Assembly: GCA_963759805.1 (NCBI GenBank)
Contig: CAVXAT010000019.1
Coordinates: 1-13,987, forward strand
DNA from: an uncultured bacterium
GTDB lineage: Bacteria > Babelota > Babeliae > Babelales > RVW-14
Length of the DNA: 13,987 nucleotides
Direction: 5' to 3'
Every line of letters starts with the position of its first letter. Positions within the stretch are counted from its first letter, which is position 1. The notes beneath the pieces were generated by a model. The model searched no databases. It had not been told where the DNA came from and saw only the letters and a program-made list of their open reading frames with translations. A program made the position numbers and the translations under genes. Of the stretch, positions 1 through 12,526 are shown piece by piece.

Positions 1-425
1 ATCACGATAATCAGGTATGCCCAGCAATCTTTTCTCCTAATGGCCAACCCATCTTAACTGCTTCAGATGACAACACTGCAAAACTTTGGAATTTGAACGG
101 GCAGCTTATTGCAACATTCACACGATATATATCAAGCAGTCTTTTCCCCGGATGGCCAATTCATCTTAACTGCTTCAAATGACTATACTGCAAAACTTTG
201 GGAAATCCATCCACTTTGGAATTCCACAAAATATCGAACTGGCCAACTTTCTTTGCAAGAGTTAGCAACGATTTTGCTTATCTTGAAACACAAAGATTTT
301 GTTAGGTCAAATTCGAAGATCCAGGCCATTATTCATGGCGTTCTTAATCAAATCGATGGACCTGTGGATGTGCCTAAGAGCAAAGACACATCAAAAACTT
401 TTTTGTATGGTTTTTGAATTCTTAA
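1..425 (+). pseudogene. 3' part of WD40-repeat paralog 1 (5' truncated by window; frameshifted)
   Basis: Two WD40 units (H..V..A.FSP.G..ILTAS.D.TAKLW) followed by the family C-terminal domain (WEIHPLWNSTKYRTGQLSLQELATILLILK). Frameshifts occur near 120 and near 370. The family ending HIKNFFVWFLNS* (TAA 423-425) lies in a different frame from ORF 109..417. Confidence 0.75.
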
Positions 426-766
426 ACGGAAAGACTAATGTGGAAAACCAACATGGCTTAATACCCAAAAAATGCAGCCCGGCGACCAGGTTCTGTTCTC
501 GCCCAGGTGGAACCAGGTGTTTCAAGATCTGGTGTTGAAGTTGGCTGCTTAAAACAACAAATAATTTAGCATTTAAGTTTCACATAGAAACGTACCCAAT
601 TCAAATATCACCCAATCTGTTTCAGCCTGAAATCTTAATCTATTTTTAATCTATTTTTTTGATTTTTTGAGGGAGCGGTTGCGCAACCTGTTTTTTATTG
701 TTAAAATTGAAAATAATAAGAATTAAATAAAGTTTTTTATTGCAAATGTGAGTACAGGTTATATTT

Positions 767-772
767 AGGAGG
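767..772 (+). promoter_or_regulatory. Shine-Dalgarno site for WD40 paralog 2
   Basis: AGGAGG 7 nt upstream of ATG at 780. Confidence 0.7.
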
Positions 773-779
773 TTATATC

Positions 780-2111
780 ATGAAAAAGAGTTTATTTTTA
801 ATACCTTTGGCGACGCTGTTTTTTCAGGTACCATCATATGTTTTTTGTGCAATGGCGCCGGAAGAAACAAGTCGTAATTGGTCCTAACCTTACATCAAAT
901 ATGTTTCAATAATGCCAGTAACCATATTCTACTATTACACCCCAGAACAACTCCTTGAATCACCAAAAAGGAAAAAGCCCTGCCGCAAGAAATTGCATAT
1001 GAAATTTCTAAAACTTTAATATCAATAAATTCTGCCTTTTTCTTTCCCAAAATCGATGGTTATCCAAAAAAATCATGACAGTTTGGGATTTCATCACATT
1101 ACAATATTCCACCATGATGATTTGTAAATTCAGCAGTCTTTTCCCCGGATGGCCAATTCATTTTAACTGCTTCAAAGATCATACTGCAAAACTTTGGAAT
1201 TTGAACGGAGAGCCGATTGCAACATTCCATCACTGATTTTAGGTAAACTCAGCAGTCTTTTCCCCCGATGGCCAATTCATCTTAACTGCTTCATGGACCA
1301 TACTGCAAAACTTTGGAATTTGAACGGAGGAGAGCCGATTGCAACATTCCAGCACGATTTTGGGGTAAACTCAGCAGTCTTTTCCCCCGATGGCCAATCC
1401 ATTTTAACTGCTTCATAGGACCACACTGCAAAACTTTGGAATTTGAACGGAGGAGAGCCGATTGCAACATTCCATCACGATTTTGGGGTAAAATCAGCAG
1501 TCTTTTCCCCCGATGGCCAGTTCATTTTAACTGCTTCACATGACAAAACTGCAAAACTTTGGAATTTGAACGGAGGAGAGCCGATTGCAACATTCCAGCA
1601 CGATTTTGGGGTAAACTCAGCAGTCTTTTCCCCCGATGGCCAGTCCATCTTAACAGCTTCAGTTGACATTGCAAAACTTTGTAATTTGAACGGAGAGCCA
1701 ATTACAATATTCCAGCACGATTTTTGGGTAACCTCAGCAGTCTTTTCCCATGATGGCCAATTCATTTTAACTGCTTTAGGTAACGGTACTGCAATACTTT
1801 GGGAAATTCATCCGCTTAGGAATTCTCCAAAATATCGCAATGGTCAACTTTCTTTGCAAGAGCTAACAACAATTTTGCTTATTTTGAAATACAAAGACTT
1901 TGTTAAGTCAAATCCGGAGGCCCAGGCCATTATTCATGAAGTTCTTGATCAAATAGATGGAAATGTACCTGACGAACAAAGATACATCAAAAACTTTTTT
2001 GAATGGTTTTTAATCGATGGGAATGTACCTGACGAACAAAGATACATCACGAACAAATGGAATGTACCTGGATACATCAAAAAATTTTTTGAATGGTTTT
2101 TAAATTATTAA
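780..2111 (+). pseudogene. WD40-repeat paralog 2, about 6 repeats, multiple frameshifts (pseudogene or sequencing indels)
   Basis: ATG at 780 begins a signal-like MKKSLFLIPLATLFFQVPSYVFCA. Out-of-frame pieces (ICFNNA, ALPQEIAYEISK, FFPKIDGYPK) match the N-terminus of 2127..3455. WD40 units start near 1112, 1230, 1353, 1477, 1600 and 1717. Only 1443..2111 is a long continuous frame. Confidence 0.8.
1952..2105 (+). repeat. Local tandem duplication/triplication of the C-terminal tail (about 60-bp unit)
   Basis: GATGGRAATGTACCTGACGAACAAAGATACATCA occurs twice 60 bp apart, plus a rearranged third piece. The peptide IDGNVPDEQRYI...FFEWFL is repeated. Confidence 0.85.
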
Positions 2112-2126
2112 AAATGAAAGACTAAC

Positions 2127-3455
2127 ATGAAAAAACATCTTATGCCCAAAAATTTATTTGTGATTGCCCTACTCCTAATCACATTTTTTAAAAACGTAAG
2201 TGGAGCCAAACCCTTGACTGAAATATGTTTAAAGAATGCCTATGAATATATTCTCGACTGTCCTCCGAAACAACTTATTGAATTAGCCAGAGGCGAAAAG
2301 GCCCTACCCCAAGAAATTGCATACGAAATTTCTAAAGCCTTAATAACAAAAAATTCTACTCTTTTCTTTCCTAAAGTTGATGGTTATCCAAAAATAAAAC
2401 AAATATCCCAACATAATAATGAAGTAAAATCAGCAGTCTTTTCCCCCGATGGCCAGTTCATCTTAACTGCTTCATATGACAACACTGCAAAACTTTGGAA
2501 TTTGAACGGAGGAGAGCCGATTACAATATTCCAGCACGGTCATTTGGTATTCTCAGCAGTCTTTTCCCCGGATGGCCAGTTCATCTTAACAGCTCCAGCT
2601 GACCATACTGCAAAACTTTGGAATTTGAACGGAGGAGAGCCGATTGCAACATTCCAGCACGGTGATTGGGTACTCTCAGCAGTCTTTTCCCCCGATGGCC
2701 AATCCATCTTAACAGCTTCAACTGACCGTACTGCAAAACTTTGGAATTTGAACGGAGGAGAGCCGATTACAACATTCCAGCACGATTTTGAGGTAAAATC
2801 AGCAGTCTTTTCCCCCGATGGCCAGTTCATCTTAACAGCTTCACTTGACCATACTGCAAAACTTTGGAATTTGAACGGAGGAGAGCCGATTGCAACATTC
2901 CAGCACGATTTTGGGGTAAAATCAGCAGTCTTTTCCCCCGATGGCCAATCCATTTTAACTGCTTCATATGACCACACTGCAAAACTTTGGAATTTGAACG
3001 GAGGAGAGCCGATTGCAACATTCCAGCACGATTTTGGGGTAAAATCAGCAGTCTTTTCCCCCGATGGCCAGTTCATCTTAACAGCTTCACTTGACCATAC
3101 TGCAAAACTTTGGAATTTGAACGGAGGAGAGCCGATTGCAACATTCCAGCACGATTTTGGGGTAAACTCAGCAGTCTTTTCCCCCGATGGCCAATCCATT
3201 TTAACTGCTTCATATGACTATAATGCAAAACTTTGGGAAATTCATCCGCTTTGGAATTCCACAAAATATCGCAATGGTCAACTTTCTTTGCAAGAGCTAA
3301 CAACAATTTTACTTATTTTGAAATACAAAGACTTCGTTAAGTCAAATCCGAAGGTTCAGGCCATTATTCATGGCGTTCTTAATCAAATCGATGGGCCTGT
3401 GCCTGCAAATCAAAGGCATATCAAAAACTTTTTTGAATGGTTTTTAAATTCTTAA
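2127..3455 (+). CDS. Secreted WD40-repeat protein (7 repeats), paralog 3
   Basis: 442 aa with an N-terminal signal-like segment. Seven 41-aa WD40 repeats have a 123-bp period (His codons at 2412, 2535, 2658, 2781, 2904, 3027, 3150), followed by the helical family C-terminus. Confidence 0.93.
   Translation: MKKHLMPKNLFVIALLLITFFKNVSGAKPLTEICLKNAYEYILDCPPKQLIELARGEKALPQEIAYEISKALITKNSTLFFPKVDGYPKIKQISQHNNEVKSAVFSPDGQFILTASYDNTAKLWNLNGGEPITIFQHGHLVFSAVFSPDGQFILTAPADHTAKLWNLNGGEPIATFQHGDWVLSAVFSPDGQSILTASTDRTAKLWNLNGGEPITTFQHDFEVKSAVFSPDGQFILTASLDHTAKLWNLNGGEPIATFQHDFGVKSAVFSPDGQSILTASYDHTAKLWNLNGGEPIATFQHDFGVKSAVFSPDGQFILTASLDHTAKLWNLNGGEPIATFQHDFGVNSAVFSPDGQSILTASYDYNAKLWEIHPLWNSTKYRNGQLSLQELTTILLILKYKDFVKSNPKVQAIIHGVLNQIDGPVPANQRHIKNFFEWFLNS
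2412..3240 (+). repeat. Seven near-identical 123-bp WD40 coding repeats
   Basis: TCAGCAGTCTTTTCCCCSGATGGCCA and GCAAAACTTTGG recur every 123 bp. Confidence 0.95.
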
Positions 3456-3470
3456 AAATGAAAGACTAAC

Positions 3471-4172
3471 ATGAAAAAACTTCTTATGCTCAAAAATTTA
3501 TTTGTGATTGCCCTACTCCTAATCACATTTTTCAAAAACGTAAGTGGAGCCAAACCCTTGACTGAAATATGTTTAAAGAATGCCTATGAATATATTCTCA
3601 ACTGTCCTCCGAAACAACTTATTGAATTAGCCAGAGGTGAAAAAGCCCTACCCCAAGAAATTGCATACGAAATTTCTAAAGCCTTAATAACAAAAAATTC
3701 TACTCTTTTCTTTCCTAAAGTTGATGGTTATCCAAAAATAAAACAAATATCCCAACATAATAATGAAGTAAAATCAGCAGTCTTTTCCCCCGATGGCCAG
3801 TTCATCTTAACTGCTTGCGATGACAATACTGCAAAGCTTTGGAATTTGAACAGAGGGCCGATTGCAACATTCCAGCACGGTAGTTGGGTAAACTCAGCAG
3901 TCTTTTCCCCCGATGGCCAGTTCATCTTAACTGCTTCAGATGACGGTACTGCAAAACTTTGGGAAATTCATCCGCTTTGGAATTCTCCAAAATATCGCAA
4001 TGGCCAACTTTCTTTGCAAGAGTTGGCAACAATTTTACTTATTTTGAAGCACAAAGATTTTGTTAAGTCAGATCCGGAGGCCCAGGCCACTATTTATGGC
4101 GTTCTTAATCAAATCGATGGGAATGTGCCTGCAAATCAAAGGCATATCAAAAACTTCTTTGCAAGTTTTTAA
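3471..4172 (+). CDS. Secreted WD40-repeat protein (2 repeats), paralog 4
   Basis: 233 aa. The first ~115 aa are almost identical to 2127..3455 and the upstream linker (TAAAAATGAAAGACTAAC) is identical. It has only two WD40 units and the same C-terminal domain. Confidence 0.9.
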   Translation: MKKLLMLKNLFVIALLLITFFKNVSGAKPLTEICLKNAYEYILNCPPKQLIELARGEKALPQEIAYEISKALITKNSTLFFPKVDGYPKIKQISQHNNEVKSAVFSPDGQFILTACDDNTAKLWNLNRGPIATFQHGSWVNSAVFSPDGQFILTASDDGTAKLWEIHPLWNSPKYRNGQLSLQELATILLILKHKDFVKSDPEAQATIYGVLNQIDGNVPANQRHIKNFFASF

Positions 4173-5488: not shown

Positions 5489-5595
5489 CTTATTAATCCA
5501 TGGATTCCAGCCGTCCTTCGACAAGCTCAGGATGAGCGCTCATGGTGAGCCTGTCGAACCATGGCGGACAGGCCTGAAACCAATTTAGGATTACA
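5489..5595. repeat. Composite nested palindromic (REP/RPE-like) element, eno-yajC intergenic
   Basis: Backbone TGGAT|CCTGAAACCAATTTAGGATTACA is interrupted by TCCAGCCGT...ATGGCGGACAGG (5506-5572). The loop of that insert contains the hairpin TTCGACAAGCTCA...TGAGCCTGTCGAA. Homologous to 10689-10800. Confidence 0.85.
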
Positions 5596-7469: not shown

Positions 7470-8384
7470 GTGAACAATAAAAATAATGATAAAAATTTAG
7501 ACACCCAAGTAAAAAATTACATAAATTTTTTAAAAAAACAGCCCAAGGGCTTTGTGTACAAAGATAATAGACCGCTTCTGGAACCCGGCGCGCCCGTCTA
7601 CGCCAAGGCTACGACGGATGGTTCGACAAGCTCACCACGAGCGCGCCTACTTACTCCCGCTCATCCTGAGTGTTTTGCGAAGCTTGCTGAGCAAAATGTA
7701 TCGAAGGATCGTCCTGCCGTGCCGGCCATAGCTCCCCAAGAGCGACGGCTGGAGCCTGTCGAAGGATGCGAGTGCCAGACGAGATCTAATACAGAATCCG
7801 GATCAAAATCACGCCAAGATATGCTTGACGAAATAAAGTGCAAATTCAAAAACTGTACCCAATGCCCACTTGCCCAACAAGGCCGATCGCAGGTTGTTTT
7901 TGGTGTGGGAAATCCGTTTACAAAAATTATGTTTGTTGGCGAGGGACCGGGCAGAGACGAGGATGCCCAAGGAAAGCCGTTTGTCGGTCGAGCCGGCCAA
8001 TTGCTCACAAAAATAATTGAGGCTATGAAACTCAAGCGTGATGAAGTTTACATCAGTAACGTTGTAAAATGCCGCCCGCCAAACAACAGAACTCCACTGC
8101 CAAACGAGAGCGATATCTGCAAAAAATTAATTCTTTTTAAAGAAATCGAAATCATCAAGCCACAAATCATTTGTGCACTCGGAGCAACTGCCACACAGGG
8201 TCTGCTTGGATATGACATAAGCATTTCAAAATCGCGTGGAATTTTCTTTAAATTTAATGATACTTTGGTTCTGCCAACTTACCACCCAGCCTATCTTCTG
8301 CGCAATCCGGATGCAAAAAAGATTGTATGGGAGGACATGAAAAAGATTATTGGGAAATTAAACGAAATTAACACTACAATTTAA
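7470..8384 (+). CDS. udg: Uracil-DNA glycosylase, family 4 (4Fe-4S)
   Basis: CTQCPL, VGEGPG..ED..GKPFVGRAG, NVVKCRPPNNRTP..ESDIC, TYHPAYLLRNP motifs. GTG start. The N-terminal linker carries about 60 aa derived from palindromic elements. Confidence 0.95.
   Translation: MNNKNNDKNLDTQVKNYINFLKKQPKGFVYKDNRPLLEPGAPVYAKATTDGSTSSPRARLLTPAHPECFAKLAEQNVSKDRPAVPAIAPQERRLEPVEGCECQTRSNTESGSKSRQDMLDEIKCKFKNCTQCPLAQQGRSQVVFGVGNPFTKIMFVGEGPGRDEDAQGKPFVGRAGQLLTKIIEAMKLKRDEVYISNVVKCRPPNNRTPLPNESDICKKLILFKEIEIIKPQIICALGATATQGLLGYDISISKSRGIFFKFNDTLVLPTYHPAYLLRNPDAKKIVWEDMKKIIGKLNEINTTI
7588..7773. repeat. Cluster of in-frame palindromic elements in udg
   Basis: Contains CCGTCTACGCCAAGGCTACGACGG (7594-7617), TGGTTCGACAAGCTCACCACGAGCG, CGCTCATCCTGAGTG...TGTATCGAAGGA, CCTGCCGTGCCGGCCATAGC...GCGACGGCTGGA (7713-7753) and AGCCTGTCGAAGGA. 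All match the intergenic elements. Confidence 0.85.
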
Positions 8385-8395
8385 ACACATGGGGC

Positions 8396-8424
8396 TTTAA
8401 ACACGCGTATTTTTCTGTTAAGAT
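8396..8424 (+). promoter_or_regulatory. Putative sigma70 promoter upstream of the tRNA-fragment array
   Basis: TTTAAA (8396-8401), 17 bp spacer, TAAGAT (8419-8424), with a TGn extended -10. The first tRNA 5' end is 24 nt downstream. Confidence 0.45.
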
Positions 8425-8447
8425 CAAATATATCTTGAAAATTACTT

Positions 8448-9134
8448 GGAGACGTAGCTTCCAGCCTTCGCCCTTCCCACTCCGCTCAGGTAGCTCCGAG
8501 GGACAGGTCGTGGCTACGGCGGACAGGCAGTTGGTTATTGAAAACTTTTGGAGACGTAGCTTCCAGCCTTCGCCCTTCCCACTCCGCTCAGGTAGCTCCG
8601 AGGGACAGGTCGTGGCTACGGCGGACAGGCAGTTGGTTATTGAAAACTTTTGGAGACGTAGCTTCCAGCCTTCGCCCTACGTGGCTACGGCGGACAGGCA
8701 GTTGGTTATTGAAAACTTTTGGAGACGTAGCTTCCAGCCTTCGCCCTACGTGGCTACGGCGGACAGGCAGTTGGTTATTGAAAACTTTTGGAGACGTAGC
8801 TTCCAGCCTTCGCCCTACGTGGCTACGGCGGACAGGCAGTTGGTTATTGAAAACTTTTGGAGACGTAGCTTCCAGCCTTCGCCCTACGTGGCTACGGCGG
8901 ACAGGCAGTTGGTTATTGAAAACTTTTGGAGACGTAGCTTCCAGCCTTCGCCCTACGTGGCTACGGCGGACAGGCAGTTGGTTATTGAAAACTTTTGGAG
9001 ACGTAGCTTCCAGCCTTCGCCCTACGTGGCTACGGCGGACAGGCAGTTGGTTATTGAAAACTTTTGGAGACGTAGCTTCCAGCCTTCGCCCTACGTGGCT
9101 ACGGCGGACAGGCAGTTGGTTATTGAAAACTTTT
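8448..9134 (+). repeat. Tandem array of 9 interrupted tRNA-Val 5' fragments (2 x 102 bp + 7 x 69 bp)
   Basis: Unit = GGAGACGTAGCT [TCCAGCCTTCGCCCTACGTGGCTACGGCGGACAGG] CAGTTGGTTA TTGAAAACTTTT. Units start at 8448, 8550, 8652, 8721, 8790, 8859, 8928, 8997 and 9066. The first two have an extra 33-bp nested insert. Confidence 0.97.
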
Positions 9135-9208
9135 GGAGACGTAGCTCAGTTGGTTAGAGCACCCGCTTCACATGCGGGGGGTCGGAGGTTCGAGTCCTCT
9201 CGTCTCTA
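9135..9208 (+). tRNA. tRNA-Val(CAC), CCA not encoded
   Basis: Acceptor GGAGACG/CGTCTCT + A. D-arm GCTC-AGTTGGTTA-GAGC. Anticodon arm CCCGC-TT CAC AT-GCGGG (CAC 9169-9171). T-arm GGAGG-TTCGAGT-CCTCT. Confidence 0.96.
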
Positions 9209-9237
9209 TTGATTAAAATGCTAAATCAAACACATTA

Positions 9238-9310
9238 GTCGGAGGCCTGTGCTCCATAGCCACAAGCAACGCGAGGGCGACGGAGCATTCGAGTCCTCTC
9301 GTCTCTACCA
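9238..9310 (+). pseudogene. Duplicated tRNA-Val 3' fragment with CCA, interrupted in the T-arm by a 42-bp palindromic element
   Basis: GTCGGAGG (9238-9245) + CCTGTGCTCCATAGCCAC...GGGCGACGGAGCA (9246-9287) + TTCGAGTCCTCTCGTCTCTACCA (9288-9310). Confidence 0.92.
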
Positions 9311-10800: not shown

Positions 10801-10993
10801 ACAGGAACATCATAGCAAAACCTCGCAGCTTTATACAGTTTTTGCCATTTTCCATACACTTGGCTAAAGCCGGATAAAAAAATATTATTTAAATACTTGT
10901 TTTCACTATATTAAATTTACTATTATTAATTTAGTATAGGAGTTTTAAAAAGTAGGTCGTAAAGTATTGGTGAGAAAAGGAGAAAGGGGAGAC

Positions 10994-12526
10994 GTGAATA
11001 GACAAGCAAGAGGCATACTCATTGTGTCGATCTGCACAGTGTTAGTTGCAAGCTCAAGTCTTTTCGGAGATAAACTCGAAGACTTTAAGTTGATTGAGGG
11101 AAAAGATCAAAATGCTAAAAAATTAGTACGCGGTGGCGGCGGTGGTCATGGCGGTGGGGGTGGCCATGGCGGCGGCGGTCACAGTTTTAGTGGTGGTCAT
11201 GGTGGGGGCAGAAGCTTTTCAGGTGGCCATGGAACAAGGTCTATGAAGTCTGGTAGCCGATCCTCAAAATCATCTGTACGATCTGGCGGTAAATCGTCAA
11301 CCAGATCAGTGAAATCAAGATCAAAAACCTCAAAATCATCTGTAAAAAGCCACGGAGCAAAGGGCAAAGGTACAAGGGGCGTATCAAAGGGTAAAGGCGG
11401 AAAAGGCGGTAAGGGTGGCAAGGGAATTGGTAAAGGCAAAGGCGGTAAGGGTGGCAAGGGAATTGGTAAAGGCAAAGGCGGTAAGGGTGGCAAGGGAATT
11501 GGTAAAGGCAAAGGCGGTAAAGGCGGCGGAAAAGGCGGCAACCGCGCAAATAAAATTGCACATCACCACGGGCACGGAGGCCACGGCGGAGGGCACCATG
11601 GACATCATGGGTATCACCATGGACACCATTGTCATGGTGGGTACTGGGGCGGCGGTTGGGGTTGCGCAGGCTGGTGGGGCGGTGCATATTTTGGATTTGG
11701 TGCATTGTATCCCTTCTGGTATCCAATGGATCCATTCTTCTGGGGGCCTTACTGGGTAACTCCTTGGCCATGGACTGCAGGCCTAGGTCTTCAATATTAC
11801 CCTGGTCCAGCATGGTGGTACATGAATGCATACAACTGTTGGGTATATCCATTTGCCGGACTTGGTTATGGTTTGATGTTTGCAAACCTCGGTTATTACT
11901 GGTATCCAAGAGCTGGCGTAAGCATTTATCTTGAAGTTCCAGAAGAAGAAGATGCGCCTAGCACGTATGTATACGTTGAAAACGAAAAGGATGAAGACCT
12001 GTACTATGCTTTATACCGCAAGGTCGATCGTAGCATTGACGATACAGAAGCCTCATACCTTATCAAGGTAAGTGCACCACACGTAATATCTACAAGAAAA
12101 GTAGTTAAGGTCTATCTCCCTGAAGATGTTTCAAAAGACAAAGAGTATGTGGTTGTTGCTCGTCGAAATGAATCTGAGTTAAGGAACAGCATGGATGAAG
12201 AGGGTAATAACATTAATCCAGATATCATTCAACAAATAAAGGAAGAAGATAAAGATCTTGCAAAAAGACATACTATGGAAATTGACGAACCATCTGAAAA
12301 AGAAGTTCAAGAGCTTAATAAAACTAAAGAGTCTGCTCGAGCAGATGAAGAAAAACTTGCAACTGCAGTTGAGAACATTGACAAGCAAGACAAGTCTGAA
12401 ATTCCAACAGTAGAACAACTTGAAAAGGAAACAGAACAGGCAAGAGAAGAAGGGACTGTTCATAAGAAACACAAAACAACACATGAAAGACCTGTAAAAA
12501 TGATTGAAGAAGTCGAAGTAGAATAA
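10994..12526 (+). CDS. Secreted low-complexity Gly/His/Ser/Lys-rich protein with aromatic-rich and acidic domains
   Basis: Long ORF (track start 10967). In-frame GTG at 10994 follows AAGGGGAG and precedes a signal-like hydrophobic stretch. No family recognised. Confidence 0.85.
   Translation: MNRQARGILIVSICTVLVASSSLFGDKLEDFKLIEGKDQNAKKLVRGGGGGHGGGGGHGGGGHSFSGGHGGGRSFSGGHGTRSMKSGSRSSKSSVRSGGKSSTRSVKSRSKTSKSSVKSHGAKGKGTRGVSKGKGGKGGKGGKGIGKGKGGKGGKGIGKGKGGKGGKGIGKGKGGKGGGKGGNRANKIAHHHGHGGHGGGHHGHHGYHHGHHCHGGYWGGGWGCAGWWGGAYFGFGALYPFWYPMDPFFWGPYWVTPWPWTAGLGLQYYPGPAWWYMNAYNCWVYPFAGLGYGLMFANLGYYWYPRAGVSIYLEVPEEEDAPSTYVYVENEKDEDLYYALYRKVDRSIDDTEASYLIKVSAPHVISTRKVVKVYLPEDVSKDKEYVVVARRNESELRNSMDEEGNNINPDIIQQIKEEDKDLAKRHTMEIDEPSEKEVQELNKTKESARADEEKLATAVENIDKQDKSEIPTVEQLEKETEQAREEGTVHKKHKTTHERPVKMIEEVEVE
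11405..11512 (+). repeat. 3 x 36-bp perfect tandem coding repeat (GGKGGKGIGKGK)
   Basis: GGCGGTAAGGGTGGCAAGGGAATTGGTAAAGGCAAA at 11405, 11441 and 11477. Confidence 0.95.

Follow-up and report, generated by a model that had tools for sequence, protein, structure and literature searches.

The tandem array that leads into the tRNA-Val(CAC) gene in this contig of an uncultured member of the Babelota is likely to be a neutral, recently amplified footprint of a selfish hairpin repeat, for which a small GIY-YIG nuclease is the predicted agent of movement; this reading is held with rather more confidence than doubt. The array does not stand alone but exemplifies a widespread footprint, in which 5' fragments of tRNA genes split by a hairpin element lie ahead of intact genes; this footprint also comes in a 3' mirror version and is accompanied by a linked nuclease gene. 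The amplification to nine units is recent and lineage-specific, and probably a neutral by-product. In the window (the whole stretch of 13,987 nt that was analysed), both the 5' and the 3' forms flank a single gene (Table 1).

As assembled, the array is 687 bp long, with nine head-to-tail units, two of 102 bp and seven of 69 bp. Copies of tRNA-Val nt 1–12 start at 8448, 8550, 8652, 8721, 8790, 8859, 8928, 8997, 9066 and 9135, the last being the intact gene, with start-to-start spacings of 102, 102 and then seven times 69. Both periods are 100% matches in TRF, and units are identical within each class; the two classes differ by a nested 33-bp element and one base change in the host element. Taking the insert out leaves tRNA-Val nt 1–22 in all nine units, with the leader TTGAAAACTTTT after each. 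The start positions and insert removal bear out, in the assembly, the original prediction of nine head-to-tail copies of tRNA nt 1–22 running into the functional gene, and the 12-nt leader that it placed after every unit and ahead of the real tRNA was found in 9/9 units. Its 35-bp insert holds for seven units; in the first two the insert measures 68 bp, with a 33-bp member of the element family nested in the host element. The insert had been called palindromic; it does form a hairpin, but an imperfect one with an internal mismatch. The leader upstream of unit 1, TTGAAAATTACTT, is unlike the repeated leader. The mirror-image split 3' fragment behind the gene was absent from the earlier account. 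A look-up of public reads gave one DNA run with 0.05 of the words, in short pieces from other organisms, none of them across the array.

Table 1. Features at the tRNA-Val(CAC) locus, in window positions.
Feature	Position	Strand	Basis or remark
Likely promoter of the tRNA locus (weak -35, 17 bp, extended -10)	8396–8424	+	Predicted; below scan threshold; block kept in G002 and G003
Leader of the first unit, distinct from the repeated leader	8435–8447	+	Sequence comparison
Two identical 102-bp units: tRNA nt 1–12, 68-bp nested element, nt 13–22, 12-nt leader	8448–8651	+	TRF and sequence comparison
33-bp element nested in the unit 1 element (second copy 8577–8609)	8475–8507	+	Similar nesting behind tRNA-Leu(CAA) on C1
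Seven identical 69-bp units: tRNA nt 1–12, 35-bp element, nt 13–22, 12-nt leader	8652–9134	+	TRF and sequence comparison
35-bp element: imperfect hairpin, CTTCGC / GCTACGG arms, 3' CAGG tag, between tRNA nt 12 and 13	9078–9112	+	
Intact tRNA-Val(CAC) gene, CCA not encoded	9135–9208	+	ARAGORN, Rfam
AT-rich spacer, 29 bp; small GIY-YIG gene at the corresponding place in two relatives (L330, L349)	9209–9237	+	
Split 3' tRNA fragment: nt 46–53, element, nt 54–76 with CCA	9238–9310	+	
42-bp element of the same hairpin family, reversed, inserted after tRNA nt 53, with its tag pointing to the intact gene	9246–9287	-	Minus-strand fold z -3.5

The neighbours of the locus are udg on one side and, on the other, a 161-aa ORF without a Pfam match followed by ksgA (eight ORFs scanned), an order that is syntenic in the congeners. 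The promoter proposed earlier gave no site in a consensus scan; in the congeners G002 and G003, however, both the sequence of the block and its spacing are preserved. This conservation of a weak block across three species makes transcription of the units probable, in spite of the negative scan. TGAAA, which also begins the repeated leader, lies within 25 nt upstream of 12 of the 42 tRNA genes in the source genome (G000), against about 5% expected. Two long ORFs (240 and 224 aa) run across the array because its unit lengths are divisible by three; they were rejected as genes, and over 86 loci of the wider survey described below the periods fall 28/34/24 on the three frames.

The inserted element carries the 3' tag CA[AGC]G and consists of a short outer stem, a 3-base internal mismatch (TTC, TAC or GTC against TAC, TTC or TAT) and an inner palindrome that varies. 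A structure-aware scan gave 82 matches in the source genome and none in the reversed genome used as a control; a few of the 82 look like chance, and the array's own copies were missed. Of these matches, 27 are within 250 nt of a tRNA, a space that makes up 1.3% of the genome, and 18 of the 42 tRNA genes have an element at their 3' end. The element often begins with CCA, so that the end of the tRNA gene is preserved. Within tRNA genes, forward elements sit behind nt 12 or at the 3' end and reversed ones behind nt 53–56. Polarity is fixed, with the tag towards the intact gene in both the 5' and 3' forms. The element also nests in itself, inserting after TAGCT within other elements, and occurs in frame inside genes, including one copy in udg (7718–7752, minus strand). 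Around this copy, at about 7610–7790, elements of the CA[AGC]G-tag family and of a second family are in frame in the N-terminal part of udg, where the Pfam domain starts only at residue 144. A second hairpin family, of the CTTCGACAAGCTCAGG type, is found at 5510–5565 upstream of enolase, and the same type flanks group A GIY-YIG genes.

Elsewhere in the source genome, tRNA-Met(CAT) has two split 5' copies, tRNA-Arg(TCG) one, and at tRNA-Arg(TCT) split 3' copies form a 3 x 149-bp array. The orthologous Val(CAC) locus holds a single unit in G002 and in G003, with other inner loops and a longer spacer, and no unit in G001. A single unit in both G002 and G003 indicates that the unit is older than these species and its amplification recent, which supports the earlier suggestion of insertion into the D-arm followed by amplification of leader, tRNA 5' end and element together. 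A strict pattern for split fragments matched in six of 261 genomes of the phylum; a looser one matched in 12 of 121 genomes of the order and gave 13 further cognate rows. The search of other tRNA loci for interrupted 5' fragments that had been recommended thus finds them in the same genome, in its congeners and in many phyla.

The last of these comes from species genomes searched with the two junctions as the only pattern, which gave at least 119 loci in many phyla, among them, going by the titles of the records, Patescibacteria, Omnitrophota, Ignavibacteria, Gammaproteobacteria, Marinimicrobia and one archaeon. In 109 of the 119 matches listed, a tRNA-like 5' end follows within 250 nt downstream. 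Fragment nt 1–7 equals the next tRNA at six or seven of seven positions in 86 of these 109 (shuffled pairs: mean 3.9, maximum 11), and 77 of the 86 cognate 5' ends belong to genes called by ARAGORN. A cognate copy is found upstream in just one of the 119. The other 23 of the 109 fit the next tRNA at five positions or fewer, and some of them are remnants of a different tRNA gene. Among the matches listed, at least 24 isoacceptors are affected, fragment and gene are 15–184 nt apart, and the inserts are nearly all different (117 distinct in 119). Unit lengths range from 60 to 240 nt without frame bias (86 loci among the matches listed). Six of the listed loci have two copies, and apart from the Val(CAC) array no locus has more than two or three; the tandem pairs at L387, L393 and L408 have non-identical units. 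Leaders are duplicated along with the fragment (identity at position -2 of 0.60 vs 0.33, among the matches listed), which indicates that copying occurs at the DNA level.

The fragments end close to the tag. In 71 of 79 loci among the matches listed, the tRNA remnant past the tag is 7–11 nt long, with a pattern that required at least 7. With a pattern that had no minimum it is 0–12 nt in all 37 cognate rows (16 further rows were non-cognate, and ten of the genomes used had been chosen from the broad-scan matches), and in the 13 rows from the window's order it is 0–10 nt. By eye, two rows at L387 extend past 12 nt beyond the tag. Changes in fragment nt 1–7 include pairing-breaking G>A in 4 of 19 and wobble-keeping C>T in 5 of 19 (among the matches listed). 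At 15 of the 86 loci (among the matches listed; L079, L121, L134, L142, L147, L170 and others), the sequence behind the fragment is an antisense copy of the D-arm region. These copies share one two-base change opposite nt 12–13 that recreates the CTTCGC arm from local sequence, and because they rebuild this arm they suggest that the arms of the element may be templated from the target. Removing the insert restores a whole tRNA in just one of 125 split copies among the matches listed, and not at the Val(CAC) locus. At L045 (G194:C1, about 209200–209300, minus strand), the element sits behind nt 12 of a tRNA-Ala(GGC) gene that is otherwise complete. An intact copy of this gene was sought in G194 (two contigs, 91% complete) and not found; this interrupted full-length gene indicates that insertion is possible without duplication.

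The mirror form, a reversed element in a T-arm fragment behind a tRNA, is present in the source genome and at L330, L349 and L406, and by eye at L415. These were drawn from 19 3' copies in 310 tRNA contexts, with only the downstream side searched. In a metagenome scan for the 3' form, none of 119 matches was family-like, the pattern being too weak, and across the 261 genomes of the phylum it gave the source genome and one chance match. Given this weak pattern, the evidence for the 3' form consists of the five examples just named. Viral contigs scanned with the 5' pattern gave no matches, and phage records match its tRNA part only.

Besides UvrC, the source genome has five small GIY-YIG genes, none of them in the window. 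Sixty-three small GIY-YIG proteins from this genome and its relatives fall into three clades, A, B and C, each with its own hairpin type (FastTree; support 0.92 for A and 0.97 for B, with 0.43 printed at the root node of C). Clade C genes are about 80 aa long, and one 79-aa protein matches PF01541. Of 37 clade C genes, 27 are within 400 nt behind a tRNA on the same strand, against none of the 26 in clades A and B, and the element core is near 20 of the 37 compared with 6 of the 26 others (p 0.04); note that the clade C set was collected with a query that itself stands behind a tRNA. At L330 and L349 the order is tRNA, element, nuclease gene and T-arm fragment split by a reversed element, with the L349 cassette occurring twice in tandem. 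This is the layout on the 3' side of the gene in the window, with a nuclease gene where the spacer stands. Four or more elements are found in 28 of 36 genomes with clade C and in 7 of 24 without, the genomes being kin and not independent. The link is an association among related genomes, and several observations run against it: the element core near no more than 20 of the 37 clade C genes, the 7 of 24 genomes that have at least four elements without clade C, the 8 of 36 that have clade C and fewer elements, and the presence of such a gene in the fetched flank of only 5 of the 119 split-fragment loci listed. In addition, one of the two clade C copies in the source genome is broken near its 3' end and the other is cut by the contig end. 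Identity between clade C and one clade B protein is 36%. A PDB sequence search with a clade C protein gave no match, NCBIfam has no family for the clade, and the ESM Atlas gave generic GIY-YIG clusters. Two group C GIY-YIG genes (L350 and L358), left out of the tRNA-linked count, are behind tmRNA 3' ends with the same element, as judged by eye.

Several known systems share parts of this arrangement. Integrase elements leave an intact tRNA gene beside a displaced fragment, at attL or attR. The same is seen here, and the 3' piece carries CCA, but there is no integrase or island, with only 29 bp between gene and 3' fragment; the fragments are themselves split by elements and lie 15–184 nt from the gene, and 5' and 3' forms flank one gene. 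A CRISPR array was considered and rejected, the units being identical within each class, without unique spacers and without an Rfam CRISPR match. The closest parallels are the Ssn nucleases with their SRM/NTS hairpins (SsnA, cd10448; Chenal et al., 2025), for which the authors propose an IS-like origin; in the accessible text of that paper (PMC11893778), the 94-aa GIY-YIG nuclease SsnA binds one strand of a CGTC-tagged hairpin, as single-stranded DNA, and its cut falls a few nt upstream, within the variable flank. As described there, that system also pairs a small single-domain GIY-YIG gene with flanking oriented hairpins that have a 4-base tag and are dispersed genome-wide, which in the present case is seen in relatives and not in the window, and Tyr, Tyr and Glu are in similar positions (Y5, Y17 and E63 at L349, Y6, Y17 and E64 in SsnA; position only). 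The tag differs, however, reading CYTG here (CARG on the tRNA strand) rather than CGTC. Hairpins with CGTC flank clade B, from which the tRNA-linked clade C is separate in a tree that does not include SsnA itself. The word tRNA does not occur in the main text of PMC11893778, nor are partial tRNA duplications or arrays described in it.

The REP, BIME and REPIN sequences (Di Nocera et al., 2013; PMC3733652) are, in the accessible text of that review, likewise tagged hairpins of 20–50 bp in many copies, nested and clustered, with clusters tandemly repeated together with flanking DNA and with in-frame copies in genes. The RAYT-linked REP families treated there (GTAG and CGTC) have a different tag from the present element, which has a 3-nt internal mismatch, and a GIY-YIG gene is linked here where those families have an HUH transposase. 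That text has nothing on fixed insertion sites within tRNA genes beside a restored copy; its four mentions of tRNA concern tRNA-related enzymes. By eye, none of five PF01797 matches in the source genome is a Y1 transposase bracketed by the element. Two identical IS200-type elements with tnpA only were found (G000:C4:113564–113923 and C11:76599–76958), one between tRNA-Tyr, which has elements, and tRNA-Gly, the other without elements. Phage T4 SegB is a free-standing GIY-YIG homing endonuclease among tRNA genes that recognises a conserved T-loop motif of tRNA (PMC2330249); unlike clade C it belongs to a phage, cleaves double-stranded DNA and homes between genomes, and the accessible text of that paper mentions no hairpin family or split fragments. 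The family resembles the selfish hairpin systems REP/BIME and Ssn/SRM but bears a tag that differs from theirs; att site, intron and CRISPR array are all rejected as labels for it. The arrangement had not been recognised as a described system, and a search of openly accessible papers likewise turned up no account of tRNA fragments split by hairpins or of a small GIY-YIG clade linked to tRNA genes.

The footprint could arise by cutting and rejoining. The element would enter a tRNA gene, a break would be made a few bases beyond the tag, as the related SsnA makes on single-stranded DNA, and the broken end would be rejoined to the leader of an intact copy on the sister chromosome, giving a fragment and a restored gene. 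On the strand that reads tag and then hairpin, the upstream flank would be tRNA nt 13–22, where the fragments break. A reversed insertion in the T-arm would give the mirror product in the same way, and further rounds, or slippage or unequal recombination of identical units, could lead from one unit to nine. If the promoter is active, the units would be in a long leader removed by RNase P, and no RNA function would be needed. The nuclease alone does not explain insertion of the element, and against this route SsnA cuts about 3 nt from its tag (inferred from oligonucleotide lengths in the accessible text of PMC11893778) where 10 nt are kept here. A stronger version would make gene restoration part of the element's own cycle: a predicted ssDNA nuclease of about 80 aa and its tagged hairpin would enter tRNA genes at fixed cloverleaf positions, and the cut beside the tag would drive restoration by end duplication, one unit a round, with nine units as repeated rounds, in a widespread system without integrase, transposase or reverse transcriptase. 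This version is tentative and, taken whole, somewhat doubtful. Restoration does seem coupled and not merely selected, since 12 of the 80 typed cognate loci among the matches listed are for C34 tRNAs, which are probably dispensable, yet only 1 of the 125 split copies is full-length and unrestored.

The order of events might also be the opposite, with partial tRNA copies made by ordinary recombination, REP-like hairpins colonising the spare sequence, and GIY-YIG genes as passengers of safe sites. Longer fragments with second insertions deeper in the tRNA (L062, L096, L109, L111, L119) are in keeping with this, as are fragments from another tRNA gene of a cluster, the insertion of elements into other elements after TAGCT, and the tandem repetition of REP clusters with their flanks noted in PMC3733652. 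A random spare copy would however fall on either side of the gene, whereas the cognate gene of D-arm-split copies is downstream in 86 cases and upstream in one (among the matches listed), and T-arm-split copies with a reversed element sit downstream, the only side searched. Break points that gather within 12 nt of the tag also tell against it, and duplication first is considered unlikely. Inflation of the array during assembly, with a loop of two or three real units blown up to nine, has a rather small chance of being correct. Units are 100% identical within each class, the array is longer than a short read, congeners have one unit and other loci at most two or three copies; but there are two unit classes that differ by a nested element and one base, and tandem pairs of non-identical units are known at the three loci named above. 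Assemblers more often collapse such repeats, and inflation would concern the number of units rather than their arrangement.

Two readings give the inserts or units a role in RNA. The original prediction had envisaged a structured pre-tRNA leader, serving as a source of small RNAs or tuning tRNA output by copy number. In a selected leader of this kind, the decoy 5' end would compete for the acceptor strand, or the hairpins would protect or pace the precursor, with copy number tuning tRNA-Val(CAC). It would fit with the conserved likely promoter upstream in three species, with the persistence of one unit in congeners and with the antisense arms to the D-arm at 15 of 86 listed loci. In equilibrium folding, decoy nt 1–7 displace the acceptor stem by 6.7 kcal/mol here and by a median of 3.0 in 78 loci among the matches listed, against 0.27 with the decoy shuffled, but this would be expected of any duplication, and the folding takes no account of tertiary structure. 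Against a structured leader, the folds of the units are no more stable than those of shuffled sequences (z 0.49 and 0.87; insert -0.69), and Rfam finds no family at the locus except tRNA. Tuning and small-RNA production are likewise not supported: copy number is 0, 1, 1 and 9 within one genus, G001 doing without any unit, while inserts differ between loci, spacers and unit lengths vary freely, and decoy substitutions lack a pairing bias. A selected leader is accordingly given little credence; nothing points to selection on the array, and a functional RNA array is unsupported. An intron or split-tRNA reading of the insert, with splicing to a functional tRNA, is very improbable. The interrupted tRNA-Ala(GGC) of G194, with its insert at the same site and no intact copy found in that genome, is what an intron would look like, although Ala(GGC) may be dispensable; whole tRNAs after insert removal are limited to the single case among 125 listed split copies, and the Val(CAC) fragments end at nt 22 beside an intact gene.

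On the reading preferred here, Ssn would have a counterpart in another family of small GIY-YIG nucleases paired with hairpins, which bears its own tag, has tRNA genes as its niche and is common in uncultured bacteria. Such a footprint offers a substrate on which this uncharacterised clade of nucleases can be tested directly, has a bearing on what spreads REP-like repeats without RAYT, and would explain tRNA pseudo-fragments and tandem repeats that could be misread as att sites, tRNA introns or small-RNA arrays.

The window has other repeats, in its protein-coding regions. Positions 109–4172 hold a tandem family of WD40-repeat genes with 123-bp repeats, some of which seem to be broken by stops or frameshifts. 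A 519-aa ORF at 10967–12526 combines Gly/Lys/His-rich 36-bp repeats with a Trp/Tyr/Gly-rich stretch, and has no Pfam match.
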